Source of the DNA: Leptonemataceae bacterium
Lineage (GTDB): Bacteria > Spirochaetota > Leptospiria > Leptospirales > Leptonemataceae
Reading direction: 5' to 3'
DNA length: 64,000 nt
Assembly: GCA_965227295.1 (NCBI GenBank)
Contig: OZ245742.1
Span: forward strand, 4,512,001 to 4,576,000
Shown: positions 33,401 through 42,400 of the stretch, piece after piece
Layout: each line of letters begins with the position of its first letter
Position numbering within the stretch: position 1 is the stretch's first letter
Made by a program: the position numbers

Positions 33401-36400
33401 AGCGAAACTTCTGCGAAACATGGTGCGCGCGATCTACGTGGACGGCGACGAGGTCATTTTCGACTGGCAAGAGCCGTATGCCTTCCTGGCGGACGAAGGC
33501 ATCTATCTGGCACTCACGAAACCGCGCGGGGGCTGGAAGAGCGGTGGTAAGCTCGCGGCGCAGCGCGCCGCCGCGAGCTTACCACCGCACACCCCGCAAA
33601 TGTCAGGGTGTTCGATTCCGTTTACTTCTGCGGAGCCAGCGAAACGCAGATCGAAAAAGCTGTCCGTGGAAGCGGAGATCGCCGCGCATATCCGGCTGAT
33701 GTTTCGGTTCTGGATGGCCGGCAAGAAACTTGCTGCCCACGGCTGAATTTGTGGCCACAAAGGCGGAGCATTTGTCGAGGCGCGTGGTGCGGTCGGCGGG
33801 AGTTTACCATGGTAAAATCTTTGGCTGACCCGGGCGTGGATCTCGTACCGGTACGGGGCGTGGGGTTGTGGTGGCCTCGCGCTACGCGCGAGTCTTCGAA
33901 GGTAGGTCCGCGGAAATCAGCCTGCCGGCGAGCGCCGCGCGCCTCGACAAATGCGTGGGGCGTGTGGCCACAGAGAACGGACGCGATCAGCGGAGCGATC
34001 ACGGAAAGAACTCACGGAAAGAACTCACGGAAAGAGGGCAAACATCACATGAGATATTGTTAGAGATTAAAGCACCAGGTGCCGCTGAAATCGAGTCCAC
34101 CTGGCAAGAACCCAACTGGATTATATATACGTCAATCGCGGCGACCAAAGACGTCCACGCTAACATATCTCGGCCGAACTCTAACCCCCGCCGCCCAGGT
34201 CGTGTCGTTTTTCTGGACAATCAAGGGAGTTCGAATTTCACGGCCAGCGCCGAGATCCCGCCGCGCACATCGTCGGTAATGCATCTGTGTATTTTGTGTG
34301 CGACGTCACGAAACCGCCGTACATAAATAGCGCGTGCAGGCGAAAACCCACCGGGTCTTCGCCTGCACGCGCGCGAACGTCACCAGCTCCAGCCGATTTC
34401 CTTTAACTGCTCCTTTTCTTCGGCTACGTCTTCTAACAGGTGGTCGGCGATCCGTTGCCAGTCCACTTTTTCGATGGCCCCCTGGAGTAACTCGCGCAAC
34501 AGTTCGGGAAGTTCGAGCCTGTGCAGATACTCCCGGTGACGATCTCTCAAGTGCGTGGCGAGTTGTTCTTCCTCGCCGTCACGAACACAATCGCAGGCAA
34601 TGCCCATAAACAAATCGTTGGTCGCCGTGTCTTTGTACATGCGCTCAGACACACACCACGTTTCGTAGTTGCCCCAACCGCAATAGTATTCGTTACTCCT
34701 TCCAGCCGTCATCGCAGAGGACCTTCTCCGGCTCTTTGCCGATCAATTCCCGGAGCGGCGGACGCTTACGCAGGTCCGCCGCAATGAGATTGCGAATGTG
34801 CTGTGCCGTGTTCGCGAAGCGCGTGCGCAATTCGTAGCGCATGTCTTCGCTGATGCCGACCAGATACTGAACTGATTTTCTTCCCGGGTCTTTCATGCTT
34901 CGGCCTCCTGGTCCAGGTCGTCGAAGAGCGGGTAGAAACGAGTGCTTTTCGGCGCTCCCAGGTAACACGCGCGGCGGAGTTCCTGGTCCCACTCGCAAGC
35001 GACCTGTTGAAGTTCGAGAAACACTTCTCGATTTACTTTTAAGAGGGAATTCAGCCGGGACGGCTGCGGTACCTTCACCGGGGTGTAGACCTCTTTGAAT
35101 TCACCGGTAGTTTCACTGGCGAGCAGAAACGGAAACCACTCATTGTCCGCCGTGATTTCGAACTGCATTTCGCGAGCGCACAGCCAGCGGCCGTTTGCTT
35201 GCTTGATGAACTGCGAAACGCCCAGGGCGGGGCGAGCGGTTGGACCCTCTCCCAGAAACTCGATGACGAGCAGCGGGTATTCTTCGTGCTCCACGCGGAT
35301 GGACTCGCACTGCTTGAGCGCTTCCATGCCTTCGTGACTGACGATGATTTTCTGAATTGTTTCCATGTGATAGATTCCTCCGGGGGAAGGCTAAACACAC
35401 GGCGGCATACTGCAAGTTTAAACTCAAGGAAAGTTAATTTTTTGCTGACAAAAGCCCGGAGACATGCTAACATCACGAAATGTTACTCTAGTAAATGTCG
35501 ATGCACGAGGTCGCCCGCTTCTCTCTTTCAGGGGTGCGGGATTCGAACCCACTTCCCGGGGGACACAGTCCCGGATGTTAGCCGCATACACCAACCCCTA
35601 TTGAAAATCCCGGCGAGGACTCGAACCCCGATCGACGGGGATAGAAGCCCCGTGCTTTTTCCCGTTAAGCTACCGGGATACTTCGAAGCGGCTGGAATCG
35701 AACCAACACCAACGGCATATCAGAGCGTCGTTCTCAACCGTTAAACTACGCTTCGTATGCACCACGTAGGGGAGTCGAACCCCTGCTACTCGATCGACAA
35801 TCGGGCGTTCTACCGTTAAACTAATGCGGCAAACTGTAGGGCCCGCGGGACTCGAACCCGCAATCTCCAGATTCGTAATCTGATGCCTTGATCCATTTGG
35901 CCAGGGCCCTGTGTTGGACTTGCAGGACTCGAACCTGCGGCCTTCCGCCTCGGAAGCGGGTGCTCTTTCCCTCTGAGCTAAAGTCCAGTGTGGAGCCGGT
36001 GGGAATCGAACCCACATCTGTTGCTTGCAAAACAAAGATTCTCCCGTTAAACTACGGCCCCGTGTACGGGCTGCTGGATTCGAACCAGCGATCTCCTGTT
36101 TGTAAGACAGGCGTTCTGACCTGCTAAACTAAGCCCGTGTGTTGCGGCGAAAGGAATTGAACCTCCGTAGGACGGGTTATGAGCCCGTTGCATCGCCACT
36201 ATGCTACACCGCAATGTTTTGCCCGGTGCATGGATTCGAACCTGCAACCAGCGGTTTACAAAACCGCCGCTCTAACCATTGGAGCTAACCGGGCGTGTGC
36301 ATCAGCAGGGAATCGAACCCTGATGATCTGCTTGGAAGACAGACATGTTGGCCGTTACATCACTGATGCGTATTCGTCGGGTTCGGGATCGAACCGAATT

Positions 36401-39400: not shown

Positions 39401-42400
39401 CGAAAAGCACTCGTTTCTACCCGCTCTTCGACGACCTGGACCAGGAGGCCGAAGCATGAAAGACCCGGGAAGAAAATCAGTTCAGTATCTGGTCGGCATC
39501 AGCGAAGACATGCGCTACGAATTGCGCACGCGCTTCGCGAACACGGCACAGCACATTCGCAATCTCATTGCGGCGGACCTGCGTAAGCGTCCGCCGCTCC
39601 GGGAATTGATCGGCAAAGAGCCGGAGAAGGTCCTCTGCGATGACGGCTGGAAGGAGTAACGAATACTATTGCGGTTGGGGCAACTACGAAACGTGGTGTG
39701 TGTCTGAGCGCATGTACAAAGACACGGCGACCAACGATTTGTTTATGGGCATTGCCTGCGATTGTGTTCGTGACGGCGAGGAAGAACAACTCGCCACGCA
39801 CTTGAGAGATCGTCACCGGGAGTATCTGCACAGGCTCGAACTTCCCGAACTGTTGCGCGAGTTACTCCAGGGGGCCATCGAAAAAGTGGACTGGCAACGG
39901 ATCGCCGACCACCTGTTAGAAGACGTAGCCGAAGAAAAGGAGCAGTTAAAGGAAATCGGCTGGAGCTGGTGACGTTCGCGCGCGTGCAGGCGAAGACCCG
40001 GTGGGTTTTCGCCTGCACGCGCTATTTATGTACGGCGGTTTCGTGACGTCGCACACAAAATACACAGATGCATTACCGACGATGTGCGCGGCGGGATCTC
40101 GGCGCTGGCCGTGAAATTCGAACTCCCTTGATTGTCCAGAAAAACGACACGACCTGGGCGGCGGGGGTTAGAGTTCGGCCGAGATATGTTAGCGTGGACG
40201 TCTTTGGTCGCCGCGATTGACGTATATATAATCCAGTTGGGTTCTTGCCAGGTGGACTCGATTTCAGCGGCACCTGGTGCTTTAATCTCTAACAATATCT
40301 CATGTGATGTTTGCCCTCTTTCCGTGAGTTCTTTCCGTGAGTTCTTTCCGTGAGTTCTTTCCGTGAGTTCTTTCCGTGAGTTCTTTCCGTGAGTTCTTTC
40401 CGTGAGTTCTTTCCGTGAGTTCTTTCCGTGAGTTCTTTCCGTGAGTTCTTTCCGTGAGTTCTTTCCGTGAGTTCTTTCCGTGAGTTCTTTCCGTGAGTTC
40501 TTTCCGTGAGTTCTTTCCGTGAGTTCTTTCCGTGAGTTCTTTCCGTGAGTTCTTTCCGTGAGTTCTTTCCGTGAGTTCTTTCCGTGAGTTCTTTCCGTGA
40601 GTTCTTTCCGTGAGTTCTTTCCGTGAGTTCTTTCCGTGAGTTCTTTCCGTGAGTTCTTTCCGTGAGTTCTTTCCGTGAGTTCTTTCCGTGAGTTCTTTCC
40701 GTGAGTTCTTTCCGTGAGTTCTTTCCGTGAGTTCTTTCCGTGAGTTCTTTCCGTGAGTTCTTTCCGTGAGTTCTTTCCGTGAGTTCTTTCCGTGAGTTCT
40801 TTCCGTGAGTTCTTTCCGTGAGTTCTTTCCGTGAGTTCTTTCCGTGAGTTCTTTCCGTGAGTTCTTTCCGTGAGTTCTTTCCGTGAGTTCTTTCCGTGAG
40901 TTCTTTCCGTGAGTTCTTTCCGTGAGTTCTTTCCGTGAGTTCTTTCCGTGAGTTCTTTCCGTGAGTTCTTTCCGTGAGTTCTTTCCGTGAGTTCTTTCCG
41001 TGAGTTCTTTCCGTGAGTTCTTTCCGTGAGTTCTTTCCGTGAGTTCTTTCCGTGAGTTCTTTCCGTGAGTTCTTTCCGTGAGTTCTTTCCGTGAGTTCTT
41101 TCCGTGAGTTCTTTCCGTGAGTTCTTTCCGTGAGTTCTTTCCGTGAGTTCTTTCCGTGAGTTCTTTCCGTGAGTTCTTTCCGTGAGTTCTTTCCGTGAGT
41201 TCTTTCCGTGAGTTCTTTCCGTGAGTTCTTTCCGTGAGTTCTTTCCGTGAGTTCTTTCCGTGAGTTCTTTCCGTGAGTTCTTTCCGTGAGTTCTTTCCGT
41301 GAGTTCTTTCCGTGAGTTCTTTCCGTGATCGCTCCGCTGATCGCGTCCGTTCTCTGGTCGCGGTAGAACGGCCGGTTGCCCGGCCGCCCCCGCACAGATC
41401 CCGGCGTGCGGTATTCTCGCACCGGGCTCTTCGAAAGCACTCGCTTCCACATAAAGTCAATTCAGAGTAAGTCGCAACTGAGATACTGGTCGTTCCATGA
41501 TGCGCGGTTTTTCGATCCGGTAGTGCGCCATCAGATCCCTCAGCCCCTGCCAGTCCAGACTCCGGCGCTGACTGCGCCGATTGAGCCACTTGTACAGATT
41601 CATTTCCACCTGATAGTAGAAGCTTCGTATACTCTTGTAGTTGCATTGGACGCCATAATAGTTATAGTATCCACGCAGCCGGGAGTTCAGAAGATTGAAG
41701 AACCTGCGCATGGGTAGATGCCGATTCGCTTTAATCCACTGCTTCACATTCTGGATCGACGCATGCAATCGCTTTGGAGCGGTGCGACGCGGAACCCACC
41801 AGAACCCCTTTCGAGAACGAGCCCAGCGGTATTCAAAGCCTAGAAATACGAACGCCTCACGCCCGGTATTGAACTTCGCGCGGAAGCCCGGGCGCTCGAA
41901 ACTTTTCACTCCTGACTTTTCCGGCGCCAGTTCCAGACCAAACTTTCGCAAACGTTTTCCAAGCGTCGCATAGAATTTCAGCGCATCGTCTTTGGATTCA
42001 AAGGCGCAAACAAAATCGTCCGCGTATCGACACATATAGGCCGGTCTCTTGCAGTGCTTCTTCACCACTTTCTCGAACCAGAGGTCCAGTACGTAATGAA
42101 GATAGACGTTCGCCAGAACCGGACTGATCACGCCGCCTTGAGGAGTCCCAGCGGTCGGGCGCGAGACCTGACCGTTTACCTCCAGCACGCCTGCTTTCAG
42201 CCACTTGCGAATCAGACCGAGAAAGGCCCGATCATCGATTCGTTGCTCCAGCATTCGCATCAACCAATCATGGTCAATGTTGTCGAAGAAACCCTTGATG
42301 TCGGCTTCCACAATCCAGCCGAGCTTCCCCGGACTCAAAGTTGAACTCAGAGTCTTCGAAGCCTCACGCGGACCGGTGTTCGGCCGATAACCATACGAAC

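Follow-up and report, generated by a model that had tools for sequence, protein, structure and literature searches.

Inverted arms around a tRNA array

Within the window, a stretch of 64,000 nucleotides from a Leptonemataceae genome (contig OZ245742.1, positions 4,512,001 to 4,576,000), tRNA array 1 is enclosed by two inverted 1,516-nt arms that are 100% complementary (33999-35514 vs 38838-40353), in agreement with the preliminary description of this locus. Both arms read outward from the central array, in an operon running from a DUF6908 gene through a 67-aa ribbon-helix-helix (RHH) gene to a 110-aa open reading frame (38986-39972 in the right arm). The features of the locus, in window positions, are:

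33626..33998, minus strand: left outer end region, a 28-nt spacer and then TGTGGCCACA boxes at 33963 and 33750 (inverted match to 41329-41356, 43341-43364 and 43356-43495)
33999..34035, minus strand: left 13-bp array, 2.8 perfect copies (TRF)
34380..34712, minus strand: 110-aa DUF7249-like gene, left copy (ORF list; identical arm)
34693..34896, minus strand: 67-aa RHH gene, left copy (mirrors 39456-39659 in the 100% identical arm)
34893..35366, minus strand: DUF6908 gene, left copy, 157 aa (ORF; tblastn 100%)
35528..38814, mixed strands: tRNA array 1, 26 genes (ARAGORN)
38986..39459, plus strand: DUF6908 gene, right copy (Pfam, phrog_9098)
39456..39659, plus strand: 67-aa RHH gene, right copy, its start overlapping the DUF6908 stop by ATGA
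39640..39972, plus strand: 110-aa DUF7249-like (phage-type) gene, right copy (Pfam below cut-off; phrog_871)
39980..40022, plus strand: terminator-like hairpin with a 20-bp stem, end of the arm operon
40304..40316, plus strand: conserved box, GTGATGTTTGCC-type, immediately before the array (sequence)
40317..41328, plus strand: right 13-bp array, unit TCTTTCCGTGAGT, 77.8 copies at 100% match (TRF, sequence)
41329..41356, plus strand: 28-nt spacer past the array, equal to 33971-33998 inverted
41357..43340, minus strand: group II intron inside the first palindromic box (boundaries from the uninterrupted left arm)
43341..43495, plus strand: right outer end region, comprising the remainder of box 1, then 13 nt, then box 2 (at 43362) and a recombinase 3'-end remnant
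43681..47864, mixed strands: second copy of the unit, inverted and decayed

The modules had been described as ending in 13-bp repeats. The arrays are present, the right one with the perfect copies reported for it, but the true end is formed by two palindromic boxes lying beyond them. The inverted repeat extends past the arrays (33626-35514 vs 38838-43495), interrupted on the right by the 1,984-nt group II intron and on the left by a palindromic insert, roughly 181 nt long. The intron encodes a reverse transcriptase/maturase at 41457-42770 (RVT_1 114.4 bits, GIIM 30.1 bits), and its RNA matches Rfam RF02005 at 43063-43304 (130.7 bits). It is inserted at TG^TGGCCACA, a site that is also occupied in two other modules; palindromic boxes are insertion sites for the intron and for IS1595-like elements alike.

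The genes of array 1 (20 on the minus strand and 6 on the plus strand) cover 19 amino acids, Tyr being the one missing, and a further 45 host tRNA genes lie elsewhere. The second copy of the unit retains an arm-start remnant (43681-43880), tRNA array 2 with 15 tRNAs (43959-47530) and a DUF6908 remnant of 58 aa that is 93% identical (47691-47864), together with a faint Pfam DUF6908 match over 47691-48542. Elsewhere in the window an unrelated inverted repeat of 236 nt (100% identical), formed by a recombinase 3' end, flanks a Lamassu cassette, and a serine-recombinase-like gene and a tRNA-Ser are found at the island edge.

Proteins encoded by the arms

The assignment of the first arm gene to DUF6908 holds: the Pfam score is 32.8 bits, above the cut-off of 27, and the score against phrog_9098 is 53.1 bits. 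Its product is acidic (pI 4.7), and a structure, previously considered beyond prediction, was obtained with confidence (pLDDT 87). The model resembles VC1805 and VC0508 and places DUF6908 in the VC1805/VC0508-type fold, the genomic-island branch of the Mam33/p32 proteins, although sequence identity to VC1805 (VPI-2) and VC0508 (VSP-II) of Vibrio cholerae is 4%. Repeat arrays are not known beside those two genes. Where 34 distant relatives had been counted, a profile search gives 436 representatives, and outside the phylum DUF6908 is a large mobile-element family. There it sits in ArdC–DUF6908–ParB clusters (ArdC-N upstream in 6/7 loci, ParB_N downstream in 4/7), with RepB primase as a further neighbor in other phyla; a fusion of DUF6908 to RadC also exists.

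A ribbon-helix-helix fold for the 67-aa protein, formerly called by eye, is supported by a predicted model and a fold search, while sequence matches in Pfam and the PDB were absent. Its closest fold neighbors are the antitoxins TacA, CopA_SO, RelB and ParD; omega, ParG and the ParB of pCXC100 are also among its neighbors. One motif, N-x-S-x-Y/H-L/I-R-x-L-I-A-x-D-L, is found in three settings: on its own, following a zinc ribbon, and as the N-terminal part of a staphylococcal-type nuclease that aligns with S. aureus thermonuclease and retains IDGDT, R, E and YGR.

The arms had earlier been given one set of genes; across modules the third gene varies, being DUF7249-like in the two arms here and an RHH-nuclease fusion elsewhere, and congener arms carry additional genes. 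The 110-aa product scores 18.3 bits against DUF7249 in Pfam, below the cut-off, matches phrog_871 and reaches 0.88 to DUF7249 phage clusters in the Atlas; tblastn finds its gene in this genome in the two arm copies only. Arms in one congener (G001) additionally encode a zinc-ribbon RHH protein and a DprA-like protein, with DprA domain matches at E 1e-48 to 1e-56, matches to ShosA/PsyrA profiles, and a DprA::DUF6908 fusion in one arm. The nuclease is absent from the window arms and from G001 pairs E2, E4, E5 and E6, and DprA from all modules of the genome containing the window (G000), so neither can be essential to what the core of RHH, DUF6908 and array does.

Conserved ends and reassorting cargo

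Modules of this kind recur at the contig positions reported for them (7256-8523, 20360-21736, 29654-32244, 5027264-5028204 and 5922889-5924065), and the architecture also flanks a PT-HINT toxin gene, as had been noted. Its reported presence in both congeners was likewise recovered, as six inverted pairs in G001 (arms 95.1-100% identical) and a 370-nt inverted relic in G002 (88%). We refer to the arrangement as a bracket; it is lineage-specific, so far undescribed, and consists of two inverted end modules of 1.5-3 kb reading outward around an accessory cassette. In the window this cassette is a spare tRNA set. At least nine brackets in two congeners enclose Avs3, a CHAT protein (CHAT-TPR), the PT-HINT toxin or tRNA arrays, and other cargo occurs as well. 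Every module combines an RHH DNA-binding domain with a Mam33/VC1805-like DUF6908 protein. Three further products are optional: a DprA-like protein, a staphylococcal-type nuclease fused to an RHH domain, and a DUF7249-like protein.

The non-coding end of each arm follows one order: terminator, GATGTTTGCC box, repeat array, spacer and two palindromic boxes. This anatomy is present in G000 and G001, in 3/6 short metagenome contigs, which continue into an array or repeat units past the terminator hairpin (the other three stop before or inside the hairpin), and in contigs from two other studies. The terminator-type hairpin ahead of the array and the GTGATGTTTGCC-type box are both found in G001 and the metagenome contigs, and all genomic copies of TGTGGCCACA (13/13) lie at module ends. 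On the left of the window locus the two boxes are separated by the palindromic insert, a long form that is kept in three left arms of this genome and whose single-stranded DNA (33745-33977) folds at -70.8 kcal/mol (z -7.4); on the right is a short form, in which box 2 follows box 1 after 13 nt. One short and one long end are paired in 8/9 brackets.

A pattern search of the window for the array unit, allowing up to 3 mismatches, gave 120 hits where shuffled sequence would give 19.3, which excludes the array as a product of chance. The arrays consist of perfect repeats, vary in length and differ in blocks, with a period of 13 bp, or 8 bp in one case, and copy numbers in sister arms of 2.8 vs 77.8, 2.8 vs 11.8, 1.5 vs 18.5 and 44.2 vs 3.2. 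An array-like operator lies upstream of the operon in only 1/11 modules, leaving the binding of RHH proteins to the unit without independent support.

Within a bracket the arms are near-identical, whereas dS between modules is 0.85-1.09; judged from these sequences, paired arms evolve in concert. The module genes have dN/dS of 0.05-0.37, and the arms of at least nine brackets have diverged to 27-53% amino acid identity, yet the layout is constant, running from the genes through terminator, box, array and spacer to the boxes. In G001, DUF6908 of E1 and E3 is 92% identical while the cargo is unlike (astacin vs Avs3). Conversely, G000 and G001 have syntenic tRNA arrays with 74-83% DNA identity, whereas the arms around them share 34% amino acid identity and differ in gene order. 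From these mismatches arms and cargo appear to reassort.

Possible roles of the bracket

Our preferred explanation, which we hold tentatively, is that RHH proteins coat the arrays at both ends and so mark handles through which accessory cassettes would undergo RecA-type exchange, be inverted and be copy-corrected. By analogy with omega, ParR and ParG, the RHH proteins would bind the repeat units cooperatively, building a nucleoprotein filament at each end, and the ends so marked would serve as recombination handles. In modules that encode them, the RHH-nuclease would introduce nicks within the array or next to it, and RecA would be loaded by the DprA-like protein; in the window arms, which have neither, the mechanism would need host RecA or factors supplied in trans. 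If the two arms recombined with each other, they would be copy-corrected and the cargo could be inverted; recombination involving arms at other loci would swap the cargo, and arrays would grow and shrink through repeated break-repair or slippage. DUF6908 may be an acidic accessory or anti-restriction-type partner, given its ArdC, ParB, RadC and DprA company in other phyla. Several observations count against this explanation. Arm identity can result from the ordinary gene conversion that RecA brings about between any inverted repeats, the 13-bp period is at odds with the helical repeat, tandem arrays adjoin none of 80 typical DUF6908 loci in other phyla, and the decay of array 2 and of the G002 copy indicates that the bracket is dispensable.

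Tandem direct repeats next to a small RHH gene define centromeres of the ParR/parC (R1 and pSK41), ParG/parH (TP228) and omega (pSM19035, with heptads) type, and the RHH gene and array could be such a centromere or a plasmid-type maintenance or copy-control site, a relic of or serving an excisable episome, with DUF6908 as adaptor. The omega, ParG and pCXC100 ParB fold neighbors, the ParB_N and RepB primase genes adjoining DUF6908 in other phyla and the recombinase and tRNA-Ser at the island edge fit this idea. We nevertheless consider it unlikely, since a partner NTPase of the ParA, ParM or TubZ type is found in 0 modules, the sites are inverted chromosomal pairs enclosing cargo, the arrays lie downstream of a terminator rather than inside a promoter, their 13-bp period is repeated up to 78 times, and copy numbers of only 1.5-2.8 are common. 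It is rather unlikely that the structure has no dedicated function, being an inverted segmental duplication in a recombination-prone island, its arms kept alike by gene conversion and its array a slippage-prone minisatellite. The unrelated repeat around the Lamassu cassette, the inverted duplication and decay of the whole unit and the G002 relic would suit that account, and recombination without function, a caveat of the preliminary description, has some plausibility. Purifying selection lessens it, as does an anatomy that is repeated and conserved across divergent brackets, metagenome contigs and contigs of two other studies; the pairing of short and long ends also speaks against it.

The arms resemble those of composite and IS1595-family transposons, in which two inverted gene-bearing units enclose cargo, and they could be the long inverted repeats at the termini of an IS1595-family transposon that carries passenger genes, the arrays and palindromic boxes being transposase-binding sites and the window copy a non-autonomous one moved in trans. 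IS1595-like DDE genes (Pfam 31-38 bits) do start directly after short-form boxes in G001 E1-E4 and at 8646, 5924188 and 34351 in G000, where every copy falls within a module island or close to one; the G001 inverted repeat extends into the DDE gene, over its first 97-123 codons, and the title of a 2009 paper places IS1595 at the border that separates insertion sequences from transposons. However, the module itself has no transposase gene: the complete DDE gene falls outside the near-identical arm pair, and the start of the second DDE gene in G001 matches the outer segment of the bracket that follows at 99-100% identity, which defines separate transposons between brackets, with their own long repeats and passengers. 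On this sequence evidence we assign the IS1595-like genes to such elements. In G002, an inverted N-terminal repeat of their own accompanies DDE elements that have no module, array or box nearby (2/2 loci with both ends visible); at a third locus, L142, a single DDE copy lacks an inverted partner, and module genes are likewise absent within 6 kb. The tRNA brackets of the window, G001 E5 and G002 contain no DDE gene, and terminal repeats were not found at the inner ends of the arms, which are only promoter-like. A transposon is improbable. It is more doubtful still that the arms are addiction (toxin-antitoxin-like) modules stabilizing cargo, with the nuclease as toxin and RHH plus acidic DUF6908 as antitoxin or inhibitor. 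Antitoxins are the top RHH neighbors, the nuclease bears its own RHH and the DprA-like protein matches ShosA/PsyrA profiles, but most brackets, the one in the window included, lack the nuclease, a Pfam scan of the arms found no ShosT-like partner, and arrays and inverted pairing would go unexplained. Least probable is the integrated form of an element traveling as linear or single-stranded DNA, with arms that snap back into a double-stranded stem for immediate expression of establishment genes or arrays that act as telomere-like ends. The arm protein DprA, with ArdC, RadC and ParB as company, belongs to the set acting on incoming single-stranded DNA, arm pairs form perfect inverted repeats 1.5-2.4 kb long, and the arrays are perfect with block and length differences; against this, the inverted repeat runs past the arrays, making them subterminal at best, replication, transfer and packaging genes occur inside 0 brackets, and a free form was not seen.

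Brackets can be compared with integron cassettes and their attC sites, where accessory and defense cassettes also lie between structured, palindromic sites of variable length with conserved end boxes. Brackets differ in having no integrase, attI or common promoter and in being bounded by gene-bearing inverted arms, and the exchange route is likely to be homology rather than a site-specific enzyme. As to the cargo, dense arrays of more than 20 tRNAs duplicate the host set on mobile DNA in Mycobacterium chromosomes, plasmids and phages, and are named putative anti-defense systems in one abstract (PMC5966550, PMC12803027). The clustered tRNAs found here beside a host set resemble those units as abstracted, although they belong to another phylum and the abstracts mention no flanking inverted gene modules or repeat arrays. 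A bracket that can surround tRNAs, a toxin or anti-phage defense genes suggests a new mode of holding or exchanging accessory genes.

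Architecture of the bracket and its non-coding ends

Array 1, a cargo of 26 tRNA genes, lies in the window between two inverted arms that are 100% complementary over 1,516 nt each and that end in 13-bp tandem arrays of unequal length. This agrees with a preliminary description, which had reported identical inverted arms around the tRNA genes and 77.8 perfect copies of the repeat on one side. That description can be extended, since the inverted repeat does not end at the arrays: the 28 nt beyond each array are identical and are followed by 24 and 140 nt at 100% and 99%, with the right side split by a 1,984-nt insert and the left side carrying an additional palindromic segment of ~181 nt.

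Features of the bracket in the window
33750-33972, long-form end
33999-35514, left arm
33999-34035, 13-bp array of the left arm, 2.8 copies (TRF)
35528-38814, array 1
38838-40353, right arm
38986-39459, DUF6908 gene, 157 aa, the first gene reading outward
39456-39659, ORF of 67 aa, its ATG overlapping the DUF6908 stop
39640-39972, ORF of 110 aa
39980-40022, terminator-like hairpin with a 20-bp stem
40317-41328, 13-bp array, 77.8 copies, 100% matches (TRF)
41357-43340, insert, a group II intron
43341-43371, short-form end

Comparison of paralogous modules within the source genome (G000) gives dN/dS ratios of 0.18-0.21 (DUF6908) and 0.05-0.37 (67-aa gene) at dS 0.13-1.09, by which both are genuine, constrained genes. 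The 110-aa protein is weakly similar to DUF7249, a phage family (Pfam 18.3 bits; phrog_871 match; atlas 0.88). All three minus-strand frames of the repeat array are open, to be read against the chance, about half, that a 13-mer is without stops.

The non-coding end has a conserved order in G000, in its congener G001 and in metagenome contigs: terminator hairpin, GATGTTTGCC-type box, array, conserved spacer and two 10-bp palindrome-like boxes. The sequence TGTGGCCACA occurs 13 times in the 5.94-Mb G000 genome, each time at a module end (13/13). In the short form the two boxes start 23 nt apart, and in the long form they are separated by a palindromic insert of 180-265 nt. The long-form insert of the window, which matches three G000 left arms only, folds as single-stranded DNA at -70.8 kcal/mol (z -7.4). 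One short and one long end are paired in 3/3 G000 pairs and 5/6 G001 brackets (8/9), despite 99-100% identity between the arms on both sides of the insert.

The insert on the right side is a group II intron, as its protein domains (RVT_1, 114.4 bits; GIIM, 30.1 bits) and RNA (RF02005, 130.7 bits; gathering score 49) indicate. The same intron occupies the same position, TG^TGGCCACA in the first box, at three G000 module ends (window 41357-43340; contig ~32345-34330; after contig position 5028204), and this identical position points to the first palindromic box as its homing site. Genes for IS1595-like DDE transposases with a zinc ribbon (Pfam 31-38 bits) begin just past short-form boxes, often in tandem.

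Related brackets and their cargo

A tblastn search of G000 recovered DUF6908 copies of which seven are full or nearly so and two are partial. Every full copy is followed by a ribbon-helix-helix (RHH) gene and then by a perfect 13-bp array of its own unit, and all units share a TTTCC/CGTGA(T) core; the other modules listed in the preliminary description, each with its own variant, lie at the positions given there. The reported flanking of a PT-HINT toxin gene was also found, as a module pair around a 2,184-aa toxin gene at contig positions 20360-32244, in which the third arm gene encodes a 165-aa staphylococcal-type nuclease. In the right arm of this bracket the RHH gene is broken by an rve-type integrase/IS of 356 aa (contig 30174-31325; 11220-12290 in the extracted locus L020).

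The claim that both congeners share this architecture holds for G001, which has six outward-facing inverted DUF6908 pairs (E1-E6) with arms 95.1-100% identical over 1.2-2.4 kb. Their gene order begins with a DprA-like gene (PF02481, E 1e-48 to 1e-56) and a zinc-ribbon gene, followed by DUF6908, in E1 and E3 a nuclease gene, and the array; the repeat unit is 13 bp except in one bracket, where it is 8 bp (44.2 copies). The cargo comprises an astacin cluster, MerR/MerC-like genes, Avs3 (PADLOC, 2,707 bits), a TPR-CHAT protein, a 24-tRNA array and unknown genes. In G002 the claim reduces to a relic around a decayed tRNA array, a 370-nt inverted repeat of 88% identity that contains a zinc-ribbon gene and 43 DUF6908 codons and is without a repeat array. 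A first metagenome scan gave no match; a second returned six contigs of at most 3.1 kb with a related DUF6908, five of which continue into or past the terminator hairpin. Repeat units occur in three (2.5 copies of a 13-bp unit in L139, an 8-bp array at the contig end in L135, one or two imperfect units in L136), and in L139 and L136 the box before the array and the palindromic boxes after it are present as well. In contigs of two other studies a related tRNA array is joined to the start of DUF6908; one of these has 1,769 other letters in place of the 178-nt inner spacer.

The arms within a bracket are near-identical, and modules of different brackets in one genome stand at dS ~0.9-1.0, a pattern that indicates concerted evolution or repeated re-copying. 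Reassortment of arms and cargo is seen as well: DUF6908 of E1 and E3 is 92% identical and their cargo is unrelated. Array length is the least stable feature, with sister arms at 2.8 vs 77.8, 2.8 vs 11.8, 1.5 vs 18.5 and 44.2 vs 3.2 copies, and adjacent blocks of different perfect units are also found within arrays.

ARAGORN identified 42 tRNA genes in the window, 26 in array 1 and 15 at 43959-47530 (array 2). With 26 genes in 3.3 kb, array 1 has the high number and density and the duplicated housekeeping set of a tRNA array unit; it duplicates the 45 host tRNAs outside the arrays for 19 amino acids, and Pro(cgg) is the only tRNA confined to arrays in G000. Comparable units have been described in Mycobacterium, and in one abstract they appear as putative anti-defense systems (PMC5966550, PMC12803027); a literature search on tRNA arrays with inverted repeats found nothing related. 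At the DNA level, identity between the G000 and G001 tRNA arrays is 74-83%. Both lie in synteny, as mirror images, with tRNA-Ser and a recombinase gene (65% aa identity), whereas the arms around them share only 34% aa identity and differ in gene order. The whole unit is present a second time in the window (43681-48542, with array 2), in inverted orientation and in decay: 15/26 tRNAs are left and both arms are truncated. The ORF 47691-48542 of this copy joins 58 DUF6908 codons in one frame to a TetR gene. ARAGORN reported irregular anticodon loops in the congeners, '(ta)' at the Leu(taa) position in G001 (L017 11261-11334) and a four-letter '(ctaa)' in G002 (L132 14157-14232), and these tRNAs may be decayed or may be unusual decoders.

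The neighborhood of the brackets holds further mobile and defense genes. A low-GC segment at 27313-33746 includes a 550-aa recombinase-like gene (PF07508) overlapping tRNA-Ser(cga) and a Lamassu system (LmuA 29324-30571, a 181-aa gene, LmuB 31085-32998), bracketed by an inverted 236-nt repeat of 100% identity (27490-27725 vs 33400-33635) that corresponds to the recombinase 3' end; the 246-aa ORF 33006-33746 repeats part of that end in inverted orientation. The arrangement is mirrored in G001, with ~3 kb of other DNA replacing the Lamassu genes. The low-GC island also has a 163-aa fragment of a DDE_Tnp_1 transposase at its far edge (48814-49305). IS1595-like transposons with near-identical terminal repeats of 250-420 nt, and often with tandem DDE paralogues, occur between brackets in G000 (contig 8623-20260) and G001 (1582929-1595824, 1604760-1610376, 1624657-1632257), carrying Gabija GajA/GajB in the former and AcrB-type efflux, OEP and others in the latter.

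Proteins encoded by the arms

The DUF6908 assignment of the preliminary description stands, as the window copy scores 32.8 bits against Pfam PF21849 (gathering cut-off 27) and 53.1 bits against phrog_9098. Copies from G001 arms reach 54.8 bits (Pfam), and a profile built from arm proteins retrieves typical members at up to 147 bits. That profile returned 436 representatives at E <= 0.001, many more than the 34 distant relatives counted before. Contrary to the earlier statement that no structure could be predicted, an alignment of 120 profile-found relatives gave a model with pLDDT 87.3 and pTM 0.81, in which two helices are followed by an antiparallel sheet of eight strands and, at the C terminus, by a long helix. 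This predicted protein, which is acidic (pI 4.7), has the features that define the Mam33/p32 (VC1805-like) fold, namely an N-terminal helix, an antiparallel sheet, a C-terminal helix packed on the sheet and a significant structural match; Foldseek alone returned nothing for the model at E <= 0.001 (best E 0.03).

The family is rare in the phylum of this organism (7/401 genomes), as had been noted. A motif scan found at least 595 genomic loci, and the best 80 are mostly from Acidobacteriota. Among seven loci examined, ArdC-N lies directly upstream in six and a ParB_N protein downstream in four, once with RepB primase; fusions to RadC and HTH domains exist among relatives. This company suggests that DUF6908 is a gene of the establishment/anti-restriction neighborhood of mobile elements. 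A perfect array was adjacent to DUF6908 in none of the 80 loci of typical members (the best 80 of at least 595), one of which has an 8-bp array of 14.6 copies 2.4 kb away. The array and bracket are a lineage-specific development. A tblastn search of phage and plasmid collections gave no match to DUF6908, and a full-text literature search gave no mention. Among the fusions are DprA-DUF6908 of 400 aa in one G001 arm (L018 6511-7713), and DUF6908 with a RadC-like JAB domain in a 565-aa database representative (P0141).

The 67-aa protein, called ribbon-helix-helix by eye in the preliminary description, does belong to this superfamily, with an N-terminal strand, a helix, a turn with a small/polar motif, a second helix and structural similarity to RHH proteins. 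Foldseek and a profile search of PDB sequences gave no match for it, and both it and the 110-aa protein matched only themselves among 5.8 billion clusters at near lengths. In our alignment a single domain with the motif N-x-S-x-Y/H-L/I-R-x-L-I-A-x-D-L takes three forms.

Forms of the RHH domain
Form 1, stand-alone 67-aa protein: G000
Form 2, C-terminal half of the zinc-ribbon protein: G001, G002
Form 3, first 50 residues of the nuclease: G000, G001 and, from a third genus, G008

The invariant core of the module is therefore the RHH domain, DUF6908 and the array; a module may or may not also have DprA, the nuclease or the DUF7249-like gene. The catalytic residues of staphylococcal nuclease are Asp, Arg, Glu and Arg. 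The nuclease, the third arm gene of other brackets, belongs to that family (PF00565, 36.8-40.6 bits) and, relative to S. aureus thermonuclease, retains IDGDT, R, E and YGR but has Asn in place of one Asp. Its gene is absent from the arms in the window; arrays have 2.0-11.6 copies in brackets with the nuclease vs 2.5-77.8 in those without, in few cases. The DprA-like protein of G001 matches the ShosA profile (E 8.8e-58) over the shared DprA domain only; a Shosta (ShosTA) assignment requires ShosA together with the ShosT toxin, and a general Pfam scan of G001 arm genes found no ShosT-like domain. A literature search for defense islands with DprA and repeats found nothing related. In the window a repeat unit with two mismatches lies 66 nt upstream of DUF6908 (background 0.007); autoregulation through such an array-like operator was rejected, as the remaining 10 modules were at background.

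A candidate cassette mechanism

From the architecture and evolutionary behavior of the brackets we tentatively infer that RHH-marked arms serve as recombination handles for cassettes, which would be the most economical mechanism. RHH domains would bind the 13-bp units cooperatively and so mark both cassette ends. The arms would then act as handles at which recombination is started by the RHH-nuclease and the DprA-like protein where these are present, and otherwise by host RecA. Such a mechanism would account for the concerted evolution of arms, their reassortment with cargo and the instability of the arrays. It would also account for the inverted arrangement, because inverted repeats invert cargo and do not delete it.

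Several other explanations were weighed. That the bracket is a centromere or maintenance relic is unlikely: RHH proteins and repeats are present, but plasmid partition of Type Ib/II combines a centromere-binding protein and a repeat centromere with a ParA- or ParM-type NTPase in one locus, and no arm gene scanned has an NTPase domain. A functionless duplication kept uniform by gene conversion, with near-identical sister arms on one side and constrained arm genes on the other, seems quite improbable. It is distinctly improbable that the arms are long terminal repeats of an IS1595 transposon, for all that DDE genes adjoin short-form ends. Such an element encodes its DDE transposase between its own terminal inverted repeats; the window bracket has no DDE gene, and where DDE genes occur the complete gene is placed outside the two near-identical arms and is paired with other repeats. 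The start of a second DDE gene in G001 matches the outer segment of the next bracket at 99-100% identity, which points to transposons with long repeats and passengers between brackets. In G002, IS1595-like elements lack a nearby module, array or box at both loci with two visible ends (2/2), and a third locus is a lone DDE copy. These observations and the absence of IS1595-like DDE genes from the window argue that the elements are separate from the brackets. Reading the arms as addiction modules is very doubtful, and there is at most a remote chance that the bracket is a linear or snap-back ssDNA element.

Returning to recombination handles, the brackets could, more speculatively, represent a previously unrecognized class of cassette system. 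Paired inverted, self-homogenizing modules, with RHH-coated 13-bp iteron arrays and with palindromic ends differentiated into a short and a long form, would take up, invert and exchange defense, toxin and tRNA cassettes through homology-driven recombination. An RHH-guided nuclease might prime this together with a DprA-like RecA loader, or the system might move as snap-back ssDNA. If this is true they would be a functional counterpart of integrons that uses long homologous arms, where integrons use a site-specific integrase. The class is probably under-reported, because short-read assemblies break at brackets. The module end is in addition a homing site for the group II intron and IS1595-like transposons. 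DUF6908, the new RHH family and the RHH-nuclease fusion, all uncharacterized, gain a candidate DNA partner in the module-specific perfect 13-bp arrays. The movement and reshuffling of defense systems, toxins and anti-defense cargo such as tRNA arrays in islands are largely unexplained, most such cargo having no recognizable adjoining recombinase, and a conserved bracket that reassorts with its cargo offers a concrete, testable candidate mechanism.
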